From Deltaproteobacteria bacterium (GTDB lineage: Bacteria; Desulfobacterota; DSM-4660; Desulfatiglandales; B25-G16), in NCBI GenBank assembly GCA_019310725.1, contig JAFDDT010000049.1:1-56608 (forward strand): DNA of 56,608 nucleotides. The letters run 5' to 3'. Below the pieces are notes generated by a model. That model saw only the letters and a program-made list of their open reading frames with translations, was not told the origin of the DNA and did not search any database. Positions 2,250 to 11,240 of this stretch are shown in pieces. The first letter of the stretch is position 1. Every line of letters begins with the position of its first letter. The position numbers were made by a program, and so were the translations under genes.

Positions 2250-4304
2250 ATGCGAGATGATGAATTCAGAGTCAGGATATCGATTTTCCAAAAGATAATG
2301 CTCTATGCTGTCCTCTTGGTCTTTCTTGCAGTGGGGATAAGCACCTATTTGGCAGTCAATACAGAGTCAAAGGTTCTAAAGGAAGGATTGATTCATGTGG
2401 CAAACCATACGGCCAGGGATATCGCATCCAGTACCAAGAGTGCCTTCTGGTCTTTGAACTGGATCTTTGTGGAAAGGATGCTGAAGGACTCTGTCCAAGG
2501 TCGGTCCCATCAAGTAATCTACGCCAAGGTTGTCAAGCCCAATGGTGAGGTCTATCTGGCCAGTGACAGGGCTTTCTATGGGGAAAAGGTTGCTGCCTCT
2601 CTTCTCTCAGATCACGAGGCCTTGCTGGATAACTATCTTTTCCCGGAGCAAAAAGAGCGTGGAATTTTATCCGTCCTTCCGGTCACAATAAACAATGATA
2701 CATGGCATATTATCGTAGGGCTTTCCCTCAAATCAGTCAAAAAAGCCATGAAGAATCTAGTTGTTCATAATCTGGCATGGGGAAGCCTTATTGTTCTACT
2801 AGGAATAGGGGGCTCATTTTTCTTTTCCAGATCAATCTCCAAACCTCTTATGAAGCTGGCCAAGGCTACAAAAAAAATATCGGACGGAGATTGGGAAGAC
2901 AATTTGACTATTAAATCAGCTGATGAAGTAGGTCTTCTGAGTCATTCCTTTTACAAAATGATGAAGGAAGTAAGAGCGGCCACTGCCAAACTGGAAGCGT
3001 CTGAATTAAGATATCGAAGCCTGATCACAACTGCCTCAAGGGCCAAAATAGGTATAACCGTGATCCAAAGCAATGATAACAGAAAAGGGCTTATAAGATA
3101 TGTAAACGATGGCATAGCTGATCTATTAGGATACAGCAAGAAAACACTTCTCAAAATGACCATTCAGGATATTATCCATCCGGATAACTATGACGAGGCG
3201 TGGGAGATGTACACAAGGACCCCTGCTGGAGATGAATCAGCTGTAACGTATCAGTTTTGGGCCATCAATAAAAGAGGAGAAAAACTCCCAATCGAAATCA
3301 GCACCGCTGTCACCGAATTTGACGGCAAAAGGGCCCTTGTTTGTTACATAAGAGATGTTACCGAAAAATTAGCAGCAGAGCAGCAACTTAAAGACTATAG
3401 CCAAAATCTTGAGAGGATGGTTGAGGAGAGAGCTGCCGAATTGAAAAAAACATTAACTGATCTTCAGAATGCCCAGTCCCAGCTCATACAATCAGAAAAA
3501 ATGGCCTCTATTGGACAACTAGCGGCCGGTGTGGCACATGAGATCAACAACCCCGTTGGTTTTGTACAGAGTAACTTGGGAACCATTGCTGAATACTGGG
3601 AAGATCTCATGAAATTGTTGAACCAGTACCGAGTACTCGAAACAGGCCTTGCCAAGGAAAAGAATATTGGGGGAGATGGCACTCTCCGGAAGGCCCTTGA
3701 AAATATCCAAAACCAGAGAGATAAGATCGATCTTGGCTCTATATTGAATGACTACAAAAATGTAATTAATGAGTCTCTTGAGGGCATGGCAAGGGTTACA
3801 AAAATCGTATCCGATCTCAAGGACTTTGCCCATGTGGACAAGGCAGAAATAGAGCATACCGATCTAAACAAGGGGATAGAGAGTACCCTCAATATCGCGT
3901 GGAATGAGCTCAAGTACAAAGCAGAGGTCATCAAAGACTTCGGCAATATCCCCTTAGTAAAGTGTTACCCACAGCGCCTAAACCAGGTGTTCATGAATCT
4001 GCTGGTGAATGCAGCCCATGCCATTGAAGACAAAGGGGAGATCCGAATAACAACCAGACACGATAATGGACATGTAGAAATCAGAATCAGTGATACAGGT
4101 TGTGGCATACCGCCGGATGTGCTTACAAAGATATTTGATCCTTTTTTTACCACCAAGGAGGTTGGCAAGGGAACAGGACTGGGCCTTAACGTGGCCTACA
4201 ATATCATCCAAAGGCATAAAGGAACAATTCTTGTGGAGAGTGAAGTGGGAAAAGGGACTACGTTCACGATACGTTTGCAAACAGAACCGGATTTGGTTGA
4301 GTAG
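2250..4304 (+). CDS. Membrane sensor histidine kinase (two TM segments, HAMP, PAS, HisKA, HATPase)
   Basis: TM segments are IMLYAVLLVFLAVGISTYLAV and LAWGSLIVLLGIGGSFFFS. HAMP-like segment is SKPLMKLAKATKKISDGDWED. The phospho-acceptor H-box is SIGQLAAGVAHEINNP, and the G-boxes are DTGCGIP and GKGTGLGL. ATG 2250 has GGAG upstream; GTG 2220 is the alternative start. Confidence 0.85.
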   Translation: MRDDEFRVRISIFQKIMLYAVLLVFLAVGISTYLAVNTESKVLKEGLIHVANHTARDIASSTKSAFWSLNWIFVERMLKDSVQGRSHQVIYAKVVKPNGEVYLASDRAFYGEKVAASLLSDHEALLDNYLFPEQKERGILSVLPVTINNDTWHIIVGLSLKSVKKAMKNLVVHNLAWGSLIVLLGIGGSFFFSRSISKPLMKLAKATKKISDGDWEDNLTIKSADEVGLLSHSFYKMMKEVRAATAKLEASELRYRSLITTASRAKIGITVIQSNDNRKGLIRYVNDGIADLLGYSKKTLLKMTIQDIIHPDNYDEAWEMYTRTPAGDESAVTYQFWAINKRGEKLPIEISTAVTEFDGKRALVCYIRDVTEKLAAEQQLKDYSQNLERMVEERAAELKKTLTDLQNAQSQLIQSEKMASIGQLAAGVAHEINNPVGFVQSNLGTIAEYWEDLMKLLNQYRVLETGLAKEKNIGGDGTLRKALENIQNQRDKIDLGSILNDYKNVINESLEGMARVTKIVSDLKDFAHVDKAEIEHTDLNKGIESTLNIAWNELKYKAEVIKDFGNIPLVKCYPQRLNQVFMNLLVNAAHAIEDKGEIRITTRHDNGHVEIRISDTGCGIPPDVLTKIFDPFFTTKEVGKGTGLGLNVAYNIIQRHKGTILVESEVGKGTTFTIRLQTEPDLVE

Positions 4305-4374
4305 GTAAGTGGTTGAATAGTCAAATGGTTGAATAGTCAAATGGTTGAGTTGTTAAGTGGTCGAGTAGTTGAGC
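4295..4374 (+). repeat. Array of five tandem 16-bp units (GGTTGAGTAGGTAAGT / GGTTGAATAGTCAAAT x2 / GGTTGAGTTGTTAAGT / GGTCGAGTAGTTGAGC)
   Basis: Read directly. Units 2 and 3 are identical. The stop codon of the kinase gene (TAG 4302-4304) lies inside unit 1. Confidence 0.85.
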
Positions 4375-4511: not shown

Positions 4512-5840
4512 ATGACAAAAATTTTGATTGTAGACGATGAAGGGCCTATTCGGGAACTCCTTGGGCAAATACTAGAGGGCAGTGGCTACGATTGTACCCT
4601 GGCAGCCAATGCAGCACACGCCCGTGAGTGTTTAAAAGAACAGGACTTCGACCTGATAGTCTCCGATATTAGGATGCCCGGAGAATCGGGACTGGACCTC
4701 ATAAGGTATGCACTAGCGGAGCATCCAGATACCGCGGCGCTTATGGTCAGCGCTCTGGATGATTTCTCTACTGCAGAAACTGCCCTGGAAATAGGCGTTT
4801 ACGGATATATTATTAAACCGTTTGATTCCAAAGGGGTGTTGATCAGTGTGAGCAACGCGTTACGCCGACGGCAGCTTGAGATTGATAACCGGGCCTACCG
4901 TGAAAACCTGGAGCAGATCGTTCAAGAACGGACTGCTGCGCTCAAGAAAAACAAGGAGGAATTGGAACATACGCTTAGCAAATTAAAACAGACCCAGGCG
5001 CAGATGATACAGTCTGAAAAAATGGCCTCCATCGGCCAACTAGCCGCCGGTGTCGCTCACGAGATCAACAACCCCACGGGGTTCATCGGTAGTAACCTAA
5101 ATACCTTGTTGGATTATCATAGGGATATTGGCAAGCTCATCAAACAATACCGGCAGTTGGTGACCGATTTGAAAGATATCGTGACCAGAGAGCAAGACTG
5201 GGCTGCCATTTCAGAACAATTGGAGGGTATTGTGGCCCTGGAGGCTGAAGCGGATATCGATTTTATCTTAGATGATGTTCCTAACCTGATCGGGGAAAGC
5301 CAGGACGGAACTGAGCGACTCAAAAGGATTGTGGCAGATCTTAAGGACTTTGCCCATCCCGGTAAGGACAAATTAGAATCTGCGGATATCAATAAAAGCA
5401 TCGACTCAACCCTGAACGTTGTGTGGAACGAACTTAAATACAAGGCTACTGTTACCAAGGAATACGGGGACCTGCCCCTGGTGGAATGCTATCCCCACCA
5501 GCTTAATCAGGTGTTTATGAACCTGCTGGTGAATGCAGCCCAGGCCATAGAGGAGAAGGGAGAGATCAAGATTGCAACACAGGCCTTAGATGGCCAGGTG
5601 GAGATTAACATAAGTGATACAGGGTCAGGTATTCCCAAAGAAAATCTTTCCAGGATATTTGATGCATTCTTTACAACCAAGGAGATAGGCAAGGGTACCG
5701 GGCTAGGCCTTAATGTTGCCTACAATATCATTCAAAAACATAAAGGTACGATTGATGTGGAGAGTGAGATGGGAAAAGGGACTACGTTTAGGATACGTTT
5801 GCAAATACAACCGGATTTGGTTGAGTATTCGAATGGTTGA
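4512..5840 (+). CDS. Hybrid response regulator-histidine kinase (REC, HisKA, HATPase)
   Basis: N-terminal REC domain (ILIVDDEGPIRELL, DLIVSDIRMPGESG). C-terminal kinase core (SIGQLAAGVAHEINNP, DTGSGIP, GKGTGLGLNV) is clearly paralogous to 2250-4304. Confidence 0.85.
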   Translation: MTKILIVDDEGPIRELLGQILEGSGYDCTLAANAAHARECLKEQDFDLIVSDIRMPGESGLDLIRYALAEHPDTAALMVSALDDFSTAETALEIGVYGYIIKPFDSKGVLISVSNALRRRQLEIDNRAYRENLEQIVQERTAALKKNKEELEHTLSKLKQTQAQMIQSEKMASIGQLAAGVAHEINNPTGFIGSNLNTLLDYHRDIGKLIKQYRQLVTDLKDIVTREQDWAAISEQLEGIVALEAEADIDFILDDVPNLIGESQDGTERLKRIVADLKDFAHPGKDKLESADINKSIDSTLNVVWNELKYKATVTKEYGDLPLVECYPHQLNQVFMNLLVNAAQAIEEKGEIKIATQALDGQVEINISDTGSGIPKENLSRIFDAFFTTKEIGKGTGLGLNVAYNIIQKHKGTIDVESEMGKGTTFRIRLQIQPDLVEYSNG

Positions 5841-5880
5841 GTGGTCAAATGGTTAAATGGTTAAACAGTTGAGGGGTTGC
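5819..5880 (+). repeat. GGTTGAGT-type 16-bp repeat array (left arm of cassette 1)
   Basis: Units are GGTTGAGTATTCGAAT, GGTTGAGTGGTCAAAT, GGTTAAAT, GGTTAAACAGTTGAGG and GGTTGC. The kinase stop TGA (5838-5840) lies inside unit 2. Confidence 0.8.
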
Positions 5881-6065
5881 TTAGGGCTCGCACAAGAATA
5901 AGTTCCCAGAATTGGCGTCCAGATTTGGGTCAGATTTGGTTGCGCCGATTGAGCAAAACCACAGGAATAGTCGTACTATTTCGAGGATTTTGCGATTGAG
6001 GTGCGGCCGAAGATGTCCTGAAAATGGGATGCGAAAATGTGAAGTTATTTTTGCGCGAGCCCTTA
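5881..6065. repeat. Inverted-repeat-closed 185-bp insert (possible structured RNA or nested miniature element)
   Basis: 5881-5905 (ttagggctcgcacaagaataagttc) is complementary to 6041-6065 (gaagttatttttgcgcgagccctta) at 21 of 25 positions. The pair encloses about 135 nt with no credible ORF. Confidence 0.4.
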
Positions 6066-6088
6066 GTGAGACGGGAGAGGAGAAACCT

Positions 6089-6178
6089 ATGTCAGATCAA
6101 TCAGCTAGTGATTTCAGGGACCGATGTCCTCTCAATGGCTATCGCAAATATCCGAAGACAAGGAAGAACAGTGAATAA
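6089..6178 (+). pseudogene. Internally deleted four-helix-bundle (23S rRNA IVS protein family) gene remnant
   Basis: 29-codon mini-ORF MSDQSASDFRDRCPLNGYRKYPKTRKNSE. It keeps the N-terminus (SDFRD) and C-terminus (LNGYxKYxxTRKNxE) of the intact paralog at 9665-10048. It has the same RBS context and the same post-stop sequence TAAACCxTTAA. Confidence 0.65.
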
Positions 6179-6222
6179 ACCGTTAAGCATTTGAACAAAT
6201 CAGGTTATGAGAGCCGAACAGG

Positions 6223-6271
6223 ATTTCAACAATTCGACAACTCACCCATTTGACGACTCAACAACTCAACT
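6223..6271 (-). repeat. GGTTGAGT-type repeat array in inverted orientation (right arm of cassette 1)
   Basis: The reverse complement reads AGTTGAGTTGTTGAGT CGTCAAAT GGGTGAGTTGTCGAAT TGTTGAAA. It is complementary to 5836-5858 over about 17 nt with one mismatch. Confidence 0.75.
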
Positions 6272-6284
6272 GCGTCTAAATAAC

Positions 6285-7328
6285 ATGACATCAATGAACA
6301 AAAATCTCCTTATCGTGGATGATGAGCCAAATGTGCTCAAAAGCCTGAAACGCGAACTCAGGCACGAAGGCTATACCATCTACTTGGCTAATCAAGGCAA
6401 GGCAGGGCTTGAAATTCTCGAAAAACATGACATCGGCGTAATCCTTTCGGATCAGATGATGCCAGGAATGGATGGAGTCACCTTTCTTGAGGCAGCCAAA
6501 CAGCAGAAACCGGATGTGGTCCGGCTCATCCTTACTGGCCATAGAAGTCTTGAAAATGCCATGGCTGCAATAAATAGATCACAAATCTTCGGTTATCTGA
6601 CAAAGCCATGGTCATCGGAGGGGTTAAAGGGGGCAATTGCCAGGGCCTGCGAACATTATAACCTGATCCTGCAAAACAAGAGGCTTCAGGAATTGACCGA
6701 TAAACAAAACAAAGACCTCCAGCAGTTTAACACCAACCTGGAGGCTTTGGTTCATGATCGGACTCTGCAACTCGAGGAGGCGGTCAGGGAAGGGGTTTTG
6801 ATGCTCGCCATGGCAGCAGACGCAAAGGACGATAACACCGGGCAACATGTTCAAAGGATTTCTGAACTAACCGAGGGGCTCTGCGTGAGACTCGGAATGT
6901 CTCCTGAAGAGTCAGAGAGAATCGGATTTTTCAGCATGATGCACGATGTGGGCAAGATCCATATCCCCGACAATATCCTAAGAAAACCAGGACCTCTCAC
7001 TGAACAGGAGTGGTCTGTAATGAAAGAGCACACCATAATAGGGGAAAAGATCTTGGGCAATAAGCCATTCTACCAAACCGCGCGGGAAATAGCACGAAGC
7101 CATCACGAAAAATGGGATGGATCGGGATATCCCGATGGATTGCAAGGAAAGGCTATCCCTCTGGTAGCCAGGGTTGTTGCTGTTGCTGATGTCTTTGACA
7201 GCTTGACCCATGAACGCCCCTATAAAAAGGCATGGCCTGTGGGAAAGGCGCTCAAGGAGGTGAAGAGGCTTTCTGGAAGACACTTTGATCCGGAAATAAT
7301 GGAGGTGTTTTTGAATTTATTTAGTTGA
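6285..7328 (+). CDS. Response regulator with HD-GYP phosphodiesterase domain
   Basis: REC domain (LLIVDDEPNVLKSL, ILSDQMMPGMDG, KPW). HD-GYP domain (MMHDVGKIHIP, HHEKWDGSGYPDGL). The first 26 codons of the ORF-track model (6207) are a translation of the inverted repeat array, so ATG 6285 or 6294 is the likelier start. Confidence 0.8.
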   Translation: MTSMNKNLLIVDDEPNVLKSLKRELRHEGYTIYLANQGKAGLEILEKHDIGVILSDQMMPGMDGVTFLEAAKQQKPDVVRLILTGHRSLENAMAAINRSQIFGYLTKPWSSEGLKGAIARACEHYNLILQNKRLQELTDKQNKDLQQFNTNLEALVHDRTLQLEEAVREGVLMLAMAADAKDDNTGQHVQRISELTEGLCVRLGMSPEESERIGFFSMMHDVGKIHIPDNILRKPGPLTEQEWSVMKEHTIIGEKILGNKPFYQTAREIARSHHEKWDGSGYPDGLQGKAIPLVARVVAVADVFDSLTHERPYKKAWPVGKALKEVKRLSGRHFDPEIMEVFLNLFS

Positions 7329-7378
7329 GCAGTTATGTAGTCGAATGGTTAACTCGCTAAGTGGTTAAGCAGCCGATG
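7323..7378 (+). repeat. GGTTGAGT-type 16-bp repeat array
   Basis: Units are AGTTGAGCAGTTATGT, AGTCGAAT, GGTTAACTCGCTAAGT and GGTTAAGCAGCCGATG. The upstream gene's stop TGA (7326-7328) lies in the first unit. Confidence 0.7.
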
Positions 7379-7428
7379 GGAAGAAATGGGATACTGAACT
7401 ACCCAACGATTGAACCGGGAGATGTGAT

Positions 7429-8739: not shown

Positions 8740-9597
8740 ATGGATCCCCAAACATTTTTCAAAAAGCTTGATCGTATCCCCGACATCCCAACCCTGCCGA
8801 CTATTGTTATCAAGGTAAACAAGATGCTTCAGGACTACGACGCCTCCATCAAAAAGTTGAGTGAAATCATAGAAAAAGACCAGGCTATGGTCACCAGAAC
8901 TCTCAAACTTGTCAATTCCACCTTTTATGGGTTTAGCTCTAAGATAACAAACATAAACCATGCCGTTATCATACTGGGTTTCAATACCATCAGGAATGCC
9001 ATCGTTTCAGTGTCCATTATAAAGGCATTCTCCGGGGAAAAGACCCTTGAAGGATTTGAGATCAGAGACTTCTGGAAGCATTCCATTGCCGTGGCAGTGA
9101 CCAGCAGGCACCTGTCTGAACAAACCAAACTTGATTCTCCAGATGACTGTTTCGTTGCGGGCCTTTTGCATGATATCGGCAAGGTAATTCTCTCGCAGCA
9201 TTTCACCGAGCTTTTTACCCAGGTGTGGCATACAGTCAAAGAAAACGGCGTATCCTTCTATGAAGCGGAGCAAAAGCTCTTACCGGTGAACCATGCCCAA
9301 ATCGCGGGGTACTTGACAAAGAAATGGCAATTTCCAGAGAGCCTGGTTGACTCCATCACCCATCACCATGCAGTCAGAGAAAGTGTATCCAGTCTTGATC
9401 AACTGCTCATCGTGCATACGGCAGATAGCCTTGTGAATAAATACAAAGCTGATTCAGAAATTCCCCCTCGTCTTTCTTCTATCGATCCTGAGGCAAAAAG
9501 GGTTCTGTTTCGCCAGGTGGAAACTGTTTCAGATTGGTTTCCGAATATAGCAACCGAAATCGAATCGGCCTGTGAGTTTTTTCTTAAAGAAAGCTGA
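8740..9597 (+). CDS. HDOD domain protein
   Basis: LPTLPTIVIKVNKMLQD, GLLHDIGKVIL and the later HHH region are typical of HDOD. The start lies 3 nt after the upstream stop. Confidence 0.8.
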   Translation: MDPQTFFKKLDRIPDIPTLPTIVIKVNKMLQDYDASIKKLSEIIEKDQAMVTRTLKLVNSTFYGFSSKITNINHAVIILGFNTIRNAIVSVSIIKAFSGEKTLEGFEIRDFWKHSIAVAVTSRHLSEQTKLDSPDDCFVAGLLHDIGKVILSQHFTELFTQVWHTVKENGVSFYEAEQKLLPVNHAQIAGYLTKKWQFPESLVDSITHHHAVRESVSSLDQLLIVHTADSLVNKYKADSEIPPRLSSIDPEAKRVLFRQVETVSDWFPNIATEIESACEFFLKES

Positions 9598-9606
9598 TTT
9601 GTTATT

Positions 9607-9646
9607 GGTTGAGTAGTCGAATGGTTGAGTAGTTAAGTGGTTGAGG
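9607..9646 (+). repeat. GGTTGAGT-type 16-bp repeat array (left arm of cassette 2)
   Basis: Units are GGTTGAGTAGTCGAAT, GGTTGAGTAGTTAAGT and GGTTGAGG. AATGGTTGAGT here is perfectly complementary to ACTCAACCATT at 10378-10388. Confidence 0.8.
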
Positions 9647-9664
9647 CCTTAAAGGAGGGAAGAT

Positions 9665-10048
9665 ATGTCTGAGGAATTAAGGAGTGATTTTCGAGACCTG
9701 GACGTATGGAAGAAATGTCGAGATATCAGGATAATGATATGGAAACTGGGCAAGAAACTTCCAGCCGAGGAAAAATTCAGATTGACCGATCAAATGATCC
9801 GAGCTTCCAGATCTTCCACAGCGAACATTGCCGAGGGCTATGGGCGGTTTCATTTCCAGGAAAACATTCAATTTTGCAGGCAATCTCGTGGCTCACTTTT
9901 TGAATTAATTGACCATGTGTTGGTAGCAGAGGAGTGTGAATACATTACCAGGGAAGTGAAAGAGGAATTGATTGGGCATATTACTGTCGCCATTCGCCTT
10001 CTCAATGGCTATATCAAATATTTAAGGACGAGAAAAAATAACGAATAA
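9665..10048 (+). CDS. Four-helix-bundle protein (23S rRNA intervening-sequence protein family, Avd-like fold)
   Basis: 127 aa. FRDLDVWKKCRDI, RASRSSTANIAEGYGRF and SRGSLFELIDHV are the hallmark motifs of this family. RBS AAAGGAGGG lies upstream. Confidence 0.85.
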   Translation: MSEELRSDFRDLDVWKKCRDIRIMIWKLGKKLPAEEKFRLTDQMIRASRSSTANIAEGYGRFHFQENIQFCRQSRGSLFELIDHVLVAEECEYITREVKEELIGHITVAIRLLNGYIKYLRTRKNNE

Positions 10049-10344
10049 ACCATTAAACACTAAAATACTTATCTTCAGACATCTGGAAAATTTGACCAAA
10101 ATTGGTTCAGTTAACATAGGATTTTGCCCCTGTAAGCTCTAATGATGCGTTGATGGAAGGGCTTGCCACTTCTAAGTCATTGATATTACTGGTTATATTT
10201 AAAACACAAAATAAGTAAGGGGCAAGTAGCTATGACAACTTCAAATTGTCAATTAAGTAATTGTTATTATTAAATATTTGGCAATCTCCCAAAAATGTTT
10301 AAATCCAAATTTCCAGTAGTCTGATCTTATGAAAATCGACCGGG

Positions 10345-10392
10345 ATTTCAACAACTCGACAACTTAACGAATCAACGACTCAACCATTGACC
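10345..10392 (-). repeat. GGTTGAGT-type repeat array in inverted orientation (right arm of cassette 2)
   Basis: The reverse complement reads GGTCAAT GGTTGAGTCGTTGATT CGTTAAGT TGTCGAGTTGTTGAAAT. Its outer 22 nt (ggatttcaacaaYtcgacaact) match 6221-6242 with one mismatch. Confidence 0.75.
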
Positions 10393-10412
10393 ACCCCAAC
10401 GGAGTGAGGGAA

Positions 10413-11240
10413 ATGGATGATTTCCAACATACAGTCCTGTGTGTGGATGACGAGGAGGCTATCTTGCATTCCTTGAAACGATTGCTCAGGAAAGAGGGAT
10501 ACCAGCTCCTTACGGCTACAAGCGCTGATGAGGGCCTGAAGATCCTTGAGGAGAATGATGTCCACCTGGTGATCTCAGATCAGAGGATGCCACAGATGAG
10601 CGGAACCGAGTTTTTTGCTGCTGTGAAAGAACAATATCCTGATACGATTAGAATTATTCTGAGCGGCTACACCGATGTGGACTCCATTACCGAATCAATC
10701 AACAAAGGCCATGTCTATAAATTCTTTCTCAAGCCCTGGAACGATCAGAGCCTAAAATTAGAGATCCGGCAGGCCTTGAATCAATATGACCTTATCCAGG
10801 CCAACAGAGGCTTGAATGAAAAGGTTCTGGAACAAAATGAAGCGTTAAAGAAAACCAATGAAAATTTGGAGACGCTGGTCAAGGAAAGAACCATGGAGCT
10901 TGAGATTCAAAATCAGGCCCTGGAATTATCACGTGCAATTCTGGAAGACTTGGACCTCCCTATAGTAGGTGTCAGTGCTGAAGGAACAATTGCGCTTTTT
11001 AATCGAGAGGCAAAATCCATATCCATAAACGGCAACAGCATTGAGATAGGCAAAGACATTAGTGATTACTTCTCAACGGATGCAAGAGACAAAATGGTCT
11101 CTGCACTCGAAACCAGCACAACCCAACTAATGAAGCAATATTCAATATCAGGGGTTTCCTACAATATCAATATTACACCTCTTAGCGGAAGGTTTATGGG
11201 CAAAGGCGTTATCGTGAGTCTAAAACAGGGAAACCGGTAG
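10413..11240 (+). CDS. Response regulator with C-terminal PAS-like domain
   Basis: REC domain (VLCVDDEEAILHSL, VISDQRMPQMSG, KPWNDQSL), then a coiled linker and a roughly 100-aa PAS-like tail. ATG 10413 has GGAG upstream; the ORF-track start is GTG 10404. Confidence 0.75.
   Translation: MDDFQHTVLCVDDEEAILHSLKRLLRKEGYQLLTATSADEGLKILEENDVHLVISDQRMPQMSGTEFFAAVKEQYPDTIRIILSGYTDVDSITESINKGHVYKFFLKPWNDQSLKLEIRQALNQYDLIQANRGLNEKVLEQNEALKKTNENLETLVKERTMELEIQNQALELSRAILEDLDLPIVGVSAEGTIALFNREAKSISINGNSIEIGKDISDYFSTDARDKMVSALETSTTQLMKQYSISGVSYNINITPLSGRFMGKGVIVSLKQGNR

Follow-up and report, generated by a model that had tools for sequence, protein, structure and literature searches.

A candidate intervening-sequence-type four-helix-bundle cassette with inverted octamer arms in a deltaproteobacterial signalling operon, and a miniature transposable element nested in it

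We analyzed a 56,608-nt stretch of deltaproteobacterial DNA (contig JAFDDT010000049.1 of assembly GCA_019310725.1; hereafter, the window) and found that the spacer between two of its signalling genes, encoding an HDOD protein and a REC-PAS response regulator, is occupied by a cassette in which an intact gene of the PF05635 family stands between two inverted arrays of an 8-nt word. With moderate confidence, we interpret it as a four-helix-bundle cassette of the intervening sequence (IVS) type, anciently inserted in an operon spacer, transcribed by read-through and processed by RNase III, to which a miniature inverted-repeat transposable element (MITE) was added later. According to this model, a PF05635 gene with its own ribosome binding site (RBS), boxed by inverted arrays of a clade-typical word, would have entered the junction between the HDOD and REC-PAS genes long ago, and an unrelated 248-bp MITE would subsequently have landed in its 3' untranslated tail. 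The cassette, apparently without a promoter of its own, would be read through from the operon, its arms would pair in the transcript to give an imperfect stem of roughly 45 bp, and RNase III might cut this stem as it does in the IVSs of 23S rRNA, which would set the messages on either side apart and free a monocistronic RNA that can be translated. As a class, this varies the rRNA IVS design by setting it in an mRNA; the present instance adds the history of its junction, nested MITEs and a negative test for selection on RNA pairing. To our knowledge, PF05635 is a very large family with a function known only in diversity-generating retroelements (DGRs), and many bacterial genomes carry short tandem heptamer/octamer arrays that are still unexplained; the locus joins the two in one place. 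Among the titles and abstracts listed by our literature search with the family names, we saw none that links PF05635 genes to operon repeat arms.

The gap between the HDOD stop codon (9595–9597, forward strand, as are the features of the window below unless stated) and the REC-PAS start codon (ATG at 10413) measures 815 nt and is mostly occupied by a 127-codon open reading frame (ORF; 9665–10048) with no internal stop. The left arm (9599–9654, core 9607–9646) is composed of about five tandem words, GGTTGAGT AGTCGAAT GGTTGAGT AGTTAAGT GGTTGAGG, ahead of which, directly after the HDOD stop, stands a degenerate TTGTTATT unit. The right arm (10345–10393, reverse strand) is composed of about six inverted words, in reverse complement GGTTGAGT CGTTGATT CGTTAAGT TGTCGAGT TGTTGAAA, and ends 20 nt before the REC-PAS start. 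Both arms were recognized by Tandem Repeats Finder (TRF) as period-8/16 arrays, share the word consensus nGTYRART, and are complementary over 44 nt (9601–9644 versus 10348–10391; 75%). The perfect 11-mers AATGGTTGAGT at 9620 and ACTCAACCATT at 10378 are present as well, and the window has 11 occurrences of the arm pattern where 0.12 would be expected. The RBS (GGAGGGA, of the GGAGG type; 9654–9660) lies 5 nt upstream of the ATG, immediately inside the base of the stem and beyond the arm-arm pairs. An earlier note on this DNA, made from the sequence alone, had described an intact IVS-protein-like gene with a strong RBS between a forward and an inverted array that share a perfect 11-bp complement, and our analysis bears this out. 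It also reported 22 nt of the right arm as nearly identical to the right arm of a decayed copy upstream; the likeness is real (10327–10384 versus 6205–6262, 79% over 58 nt), but these nucleotides form the inner, ORF-proximal end of the arm, not the outer one. No direct repeat flanks the arms in the sequence read at the locus, and the cassette contains no transposase or recombinase, the 127-aa helical bundle being its sole product. Searches against Rfam at a permissive threshold gave no match in 9400–10600 or 5750–6350, and a consensus scan of 9400–10600 detected no forward-strand promoter and no terminator, with counts at or below those of shuffled sequence. The cassette site is the HDOD/REC-PAS spacer, not helix 25 or 45 of 23S rRNA.

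The 127-aa protein matches PF05635 (23S_rRNA_IVP) with 102.6 bits against a cut-off of 33.8, over 106/106 positions, and TIGR02436 ("four helix bundle protein") with 98.8 bits against a cut-off of 24. Its monomer, modelled with AlphaFold2 from a 41-sequence alignment (predicted local distance difference test score 93.9), is an up-down four-helix bundle with helices at residues 13–29, 34–59, 64–90, and 96–126. Foldseek returned as its best match 2gsc, with template modelling (TM) scores of 0.85/0.96 and a root-mean-square deviation of about 1 Å, in addition to 2rld (TM 0.77) and the DGR protein Avd (4dwl; TM 0.75, 8% identity), so that the proposed likeness to Avd and IVS proteins holds at the level of a shared fold. 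The solved stand-alone relatives 2gsc and 2rld have five chains each and, by analogy with them, the protein probably forms a pentameric ring. Invariant residues include an ANIAEG-type motif (A56, E57, G58), and the isoelectric point is 8.8. The fold shared with Avd could be taken to mean that the cassette is the remnant of a DGR, an Avd gene that has lost its reverse transcriptase (RT), a reading that we find barely credible: identity to Avd is low, the protein is much closer to 2gsc and 2rld, and alongside 17 copies of the gene the genome yielded RT matches in only two fragments, both of the group II intron type. The remark in the earlier note that no RT accompanies the gene agrees with this search, which detected no DGR-type RT on the contigs of the genome, although a template/variable repeat pair was not searched for. 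The two RT fragments lie on other contigs (C48:794–1834 and C63:2–478), one having a GIIM domain and an internal stop and the other being cut by the contig end.

We found that the design of the cassette recurs throughout the genome (3.9 Mb in 343 contigs). Nearly all of its 17 PF05635 loci, as judged by eye, adjoin tandem arrays of period 7–8, mostly inverted pairs, with words specific to the subfamily (GCAGTAAG, GAGTTCC, GGTTCAG, GAAACTT, GCTCGTT, GATTTTGG and others); scored algorithmically, the arms of 11 of the 17 loci exceeded all 60 shuffles. Genome-wide, TRF reported about 413 arrays of period 7–9/14–18, among which gene-less ones far outnumber cassettes and include "empty hairpins" of the GTTGAGT word on contigs C230, C236, and C257; such gene-less array pairs look like cassette remnants. 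Among 160 relatives of the protein (52–89% identity) from many phyla, 76 non-redundant cassettes possess clear inverted arms of period 7–9. A lack of conserved arms around other members of the family had been part of what the earlier note held would refute its mobile-module reading; arms of the same design are present there. Moreover, the same cassette clade (76–85% identity) occurs in at least seven unrelated gene contexts, with acsC-like, ligA, pilin-like, iorA/B, cheA-like, and efp genes as neighbors (read from short translations), which implies that the cassette has reached many unrelated junctions. ORF decay within intact arms is common: five of the 80 closest genomic relatives have an in-frame stop (L046, L059, L087, and L098/L100, the latter two being the same contig sequence). 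In one 68%-identical cassette (L042, locus 1950–2480), both arrays (GTCAACGAGT-type) are apparently in the same orientation rather than inverted. Another MITE-like element (…gtcattgcgaggagcggagcgacgtggcaatc…cttattgagaagtta) lies in or beside three armed hairpins or cassettes (C247:6461–6700, C39:6330–6520, C7:7200–7400), so that the loops of cassettes look like places where small mobile elements accumulate.

Orthologous clusters, located through the HDOD protein, allowed us to follow the history of the junction. In genomes G008 and G031 (HDOD 65 and 56% identical, respectively), the HDOD-REC-PAS order is kept with spacers of roughly 75–100 nt and no arrays. In turn, the junction of G009 (HDOD 75%) holds a different cassette with GTCATT-word arms and a protein only 37% identical, and as the G009 HDOD is closest to that of metagenome contig L151 (85%), this cassette is best read as a replacement. 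Contigs L151, L152, and L153 carry at the same junction a cassette of the same clade, devoid of the MITE, with identities to the window of 73–75% for HDOD, 87–89% for the cassette protein and 74–75% for REC-PAS (L152 and L153 only, as the L151 contig ends before this gene). The genomes of the same genus (G001–G006) have no close HDOD ortholog (32–36% identity) and hence give no junction comparison. Compared with its L151–L153 orthologs, the cassette gene shows a nonsynonymous divergence (dN) of 0.062 and a synonymous divergence (dS) of 0.55 (dN/dS 0.11), against dN 0.14–0.15 and dS 0.66–0.79 for HDOD and dN 0.14–0.15 and dS 0.96 for REC-PAS. Accordingly, the residence of the cassette at the junction is about as old as the divergence of these lineages; its protein is under strong purifying selection and more constrained than its neighbors, and its function under selection may perhaps involve its own arms. 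A junction that is empty, filled or swapped in relatives points to an old, formerly mobile insert, in line with the earlier view of a mobile or formerly mobile module.

Outside the GTTRAGT arms, the L151–L154 loci carry one to three GTCATT words, of which degenerate traces are visible in the window (TTGTTATT ... CCATTGAC); these outer words fit either composite arms or a cassette nested in the hairpin of another. In L152 (locus 1885–2030), a forward GTTGAGT array right after the stop codon is followed by a spacer of ~50 nt and an inverted right arm, an arrangement that resembles a hairpin without a gene, nested on the 3' side of the ORF. In the G031 cluster (L040, G031:C59), two consecutive spacers (6300–6385 and 7240–7380) contain copies of another element of ~60 nt, gggacgagga.gaaataatttcccca.g.ag..gc.cagattcag.tcaggtttgttcg.

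The AT-rich stretch that separates the stop codon from the right arm (33% GC versus 45% in the window) is an independent MITE and a later arrival in the 3' untranslated tail of the cassette. This 248-bp element (10076–10323) is bounded by 19-nt terminal inverted repeats (TIRs; CAGACATCTGGAAAATTTG at 10076–10094 and CAAATTTCCAGTAGTCTG at 10306–10323) and flanked by a 5-bp target-site duplication (TSD), ATCTT (10071–10075 and 10324–10328); it contains no ORF of at least 34 aa, and BLAST of the AT-rich stretch found no second copy in its own genome. Seven further genomes of this family contain homologs with 72–85% identity, and in the alignment the similarity with the full-length copies of G103 and G015 begins exactly at CAGACAT and ends exactly at GTCTGA. 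The TSD is 5 bp long in 4/4 full copies, three perfect and one with a single mismatch (in the other genomes, AACTA/AACTA in G015, AATTT/AATTT in G007 and AACTT/ACCTT in G103). The G103 copy lies between TetR-like and MeaB-like genes, and the G015 copy follows a gene that, read by eye, is of the CPBP type. The empty site can be recognized as well: after deletion of the MITE together with a single TSD copy, the tail aligns colinearly with the decayed paralog (6175–6240) with one 1-nt gap, and the MITE-less cassettes of L151–L153 provide a further empty site. In G018, the MITE ends have 13 matches, most of them at ~119 nt from the end of a contig and with ORFs pointing inward from both, which suggests a multicopy ORF-bearing parent element that disrupts assembly; no transposase was recognized in G018, the contigs breaking inside the element and its 122-aa C-terminal piece having no Pfam match. 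The subterminal inverted pair of the MITE (10109–10131/10218–10240, with TTTGCCCCT at 10123 and AGGGGCAAG at 10218) corresponds to the subterminal regions of this presumed parent. Fragments of the MITE also adjoin arms of other cassette types, with the words CTAAAGTG and GGTTCAG, in L124 (G007:C131, locus 1200–1620) and L126 (G018:C117); the G007 fragment (L124) apparently lies within cassettes nested in each other.

The earlier note had correctly reported both the absence of the AT-rich segment from the decayed copy and the inverted pair inside it, but treated the 290 bp as a passenger of the cassette, and the TIRs, the TSD and the copies at unrelated loci of other genomes contradict this assignment. 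Its TTGTCA-N17 promoter-like site (10246) does not pass the consensus scan, which showed no forward-strand site and no excess over shuffles. We thus regard it as highly improbable that the segment serves the cassette as functional cargo, a promoter or a small RNA: the internal inverted pair and the weak TTGTCA-N17 motif could be quoted in favor, but the segment has its own TIRs and TSD, its homologs sit at unrelated loci and differ from one another in their TSDs, it is missing from the L151–L153 cassettes and the decayed paralog, and it gives neither an Rfam match nor a promoter signal above chance. Additionally, the distance from the stop codon to the right arm has a median of 33 nt and reaches at least 200 nt in only 4/76 armed cassettes.

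The cassette is one of four copies of the GTTGAGT type located in consecutive spacers of the cluster, one intact, one decayed, one nearly erased and one reduced to a solo array. Arrays of this word number 13 in the genome at the threshold used, 7 of them in the window, and 0 in shuffled sequence. The decayed paralog (5819–6271), a copy with an internal deletion, retains a left arm (5819–5882), a relic 29-codon ORF (6089–6178), and a right arm (6224–6271). Between its left arm and its RBS lies a second MITE (5880–6066), unrelated to the 248-bp element: 187 nt that form a near-perfect hairpin (−93 kcal/mol, z = −10.9) with TIRs CTTAGGGCTCGC.../...GCGAGCCCTTAG, single-copy in this genome, yet detected in 86/201 sampled genomes of the order in many copies each, with up to 97% identity; it matches no Rfam family. 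The nearly erased copy (7323–7420), partly read by eye, consists of a left array (7323–7370), an RBS/ATG-like remnant and the right-arm remnant ctacccaacgattgaacc, and shares the loop motif tactgaact with a gene-less hairpin on contig C236. The solo forward array (4295–4374) counts 10 words, has no right arm that we could find, and contains the stop codon at which the kinase gene upstream of it ends. One operon region thus displays the life history of such cassettes, from intact through deleted and nearly erased to a solo arm, with two different MITEs landing in cassettes.

Two paralogous histidine-kinase genes of the cluster end inside a forward array (4260–4310 and 5790–5845); one stops at the TAG within GGTTGAGTAG, whereas its paralog runs on for four more codons. 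In G008 and G031, the orthologous genes stop sooner (…IPV(E)*), and the 3' end of the G008 gene, CCGGTTGAATAA, resembles the arm word. The listed start of the REC-HD-GYP ORF (6207) precedes the right arm of the decayed cassette, so that the ORF would read through the arm (6207–6295); as the alignment with the G031 ortholog begins only at residue 24, an ATG near 6286–6295 is probably the true start.

That a single cluster has arrays of the same word in four successive spacers might also be expected if they were host regulatory sites of this cluster, recognized by a global regulator or by IHF-HU, as was proposed for similar paired sites (Aklujkar et al., 2009; PMC2700814); the small gene would then act as a dedicated regulator. 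We consider this very unlikely, as the orthologous G008 and G031 clusters are wholly free of arrays, the same cassette clade occurs beside ligA, efp, iorAB, acsC-like, pilin-like, and cheA-like genes, and decay has affected three of the four copies in the window.

Returning to the proposed IVS-type cassette, the minimum free energy fold of the 820-nt predicted transcript contains 43 arm-arm pairs with or without the MITE, and the arm duplex is estimated at −45.3 kcal/mol (z = −4.6; decayed copy, −44.9). The genome encodes RNase III (contig C108). According to these predictions, the arms will pair into a stem that RNase III could plausibly cut. We also determined that cassettes lie in the sense orientation of their surroundings: the upstream gene is co-oriented in 87/91 cases (background 74%, p = 7e-8), the downstream gene in 83/90 (p = 1e-5), and both flanks in 77/87 (background 59%, p = 1e-9), the background being the adjacent genes of the genome itself, the loci not fully independent and the neighbor calls heuristic. 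Such near-invariable orientation fits an insert that depends on read-through transcription.

A number of observations, in turn, weigh against this interpretation. Selection for pairing in the sense RNA should favor G·U over A·C among transition mismatches, yet in the 76 non-redundant armed cassettes we counted 89 compatible with G·U in the sense RNA versus 91 compatible with it only in the antisense (p = 0.94), transversions (181) matched transitions (180), and the sense and antisense duplex energies were equal (34 versus 35). With no such strand signature, there is no sign of selection for pairing in the sense transcript specifically. Similarly, complementarity within a cassette (74–75%) equals that between the intact and decayed copies (71–73%), lies by our estimate near the level expected of two arrays of one degenerate word, and is explicable by both arms sharing such a word. 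As for mobility, we saw neither a TSD nor a near-identical empty site for the cassette itself, the G008 and G031 junctions being too diverged to align, and it has remained stationary at its junction over a dS of about 0.5–0.8. Judged from these sequence comparisons, selection looks to preserve the word in both arms and not base-by-base RNA pairing, which weakens the simple picture of an mRNA version of the rRNA IVS.

These results raise the possibility, which we hold only tentatively, that the arms act as DNA, i.e., as inverted arrays of a clade-specific word bound by a protein, with RNA pairing as a by-product. The simplest binder would be the pentameric four-helix-bundle protein of the cassette itself. 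Multiple subterminal binding sites are known from the ends of Mu, Tn7, and En/Spm and offer an analogy for such arms. The lack of a sense-strand wobble bias, the symmetric mismatches and the equal complementarity within and across cassettes all agree with DNA-level recognition, as does the finding that, across phyla, the word family follows the clade of the protein. Three or more upstream copies of GTTRA accompany the gene in 24/80 clade members versus 1/278 background windows, and in only 1/13 other cassettes of the same genome, this enrichment being orientation-specific; in the nearest relatives, L041 and L158, the two arms have switched jointly to another word (GGTCGAGT/ACTCGACC). Furthermore, each arm has about 5–6 units, the solved relatives 2gsc and 2rld are pentamers, and Avd binds nucleic acid in DGR complexes (8ub7 and related entries). 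Yet, arm and gene move jointly, and common words may be plain co-inheritance. Moreover, GTTRA is kept in only 30–42% of the clade, the words drifting (GTTAT, GGTGAGT, GGAAAAT), the protein is only mildly basic and its binding is a prediction, and gene-less arrays number in the hundreds in the genome. We also considered a single arm word common to the whole clade and rejected it, since GTTRA, although strongly enriched, is confined to that same minority of members.

A more specific proposal, in our opinion doubtful, is that the arms are arrays of recognition words for the cassette's own ring protein, about five words in each arm for five subunits, with word and protein co-evolving, so that the cassette would be a self-recognizing, enzyme-less element using host machinery. 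Such an element would be expected to enter pre-existing hairpins or arrays, and the GTCATT words of L151–L154 together with the cassette swap in G009 are a hint in this direction. If true, this would represent a new kind of mobile element, and the negative result for a sense-strand signature makes recognition of the word by the protein worth bench testing.

Among known systems, the IVS-type cassette that we favor most closely recalls the ORF-bearing IVSs of 23S rRNA. The IVS of Coxiella burnetii, located in helix 45, contains an S23p ORF in a 28-bp stem cut by RNase III, the ORF being preceded by tandem GACAGAT heptamers, and ORF-bearing IVSs are also present in Leptospira, Brucella, and Xanthomonas (Warrier et al., 2016; PMC4990558). 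Common to both are the S23p/PF05635 gene in the loop, the terminal inverted repeats forming a long stem, the tandem 7–8-nt repeats before the ORF and the proposed nature of a selfish, once-mobile element. The cassette differs in its host, an mRNA operon spacer between protein genes, and in having a strong RBS inside the stem and a gene under purifying selection (dN/dS 0.11), whereas the Coxiella ORF is decaying and loses its Shine-Dalgarno sequence on cleavage; RNase III cutting is experimental in rRNA IVSs, whereas for the cassette it is predicted. The arms, in turn, resemble the GGGAATC heptamer arrays of Xanthomonas, which occur as dispersed inverted pairs (Rehm et al., 2015; PMC4692102), and the paired tandem 7–8-mers of Geobacter metallireducens, which were read as sites of a global regulator or IHF-HU and near which insertion sequences (ISs) were noted at a constant distance (Aklujkar et al., 2009; PMC2700814). 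These too are convergent tandem pairs between co-directional genes, transcribed and with ISs nearby at fixed distances, but no link with PF05635 was drawn there and the arrays were read as G-quadruplex or regulator sites, whereas here they are the arms of a cassette. Avd (4dwl, 8ub7) shares the four-helix-bundle fold, at a TM of 0.75, and differs in that the cassette protein is 8% identical, has no adjacent RT and is encoded in many copies per genome. Unlike classical ISs and transposons, the cassette has no transposase or recombinase, and no target duplication that we could see. Its passenger, by contrast, conforms to bacterial MITEs, non-autonomous IS derivatives, in its 19-nt TIRs, 5-bp TSD, non-coding sequence and copies at unrelated loci, and departs from them in being single-copy in this genome, while the longer same-ended element of G018 is multicopy.

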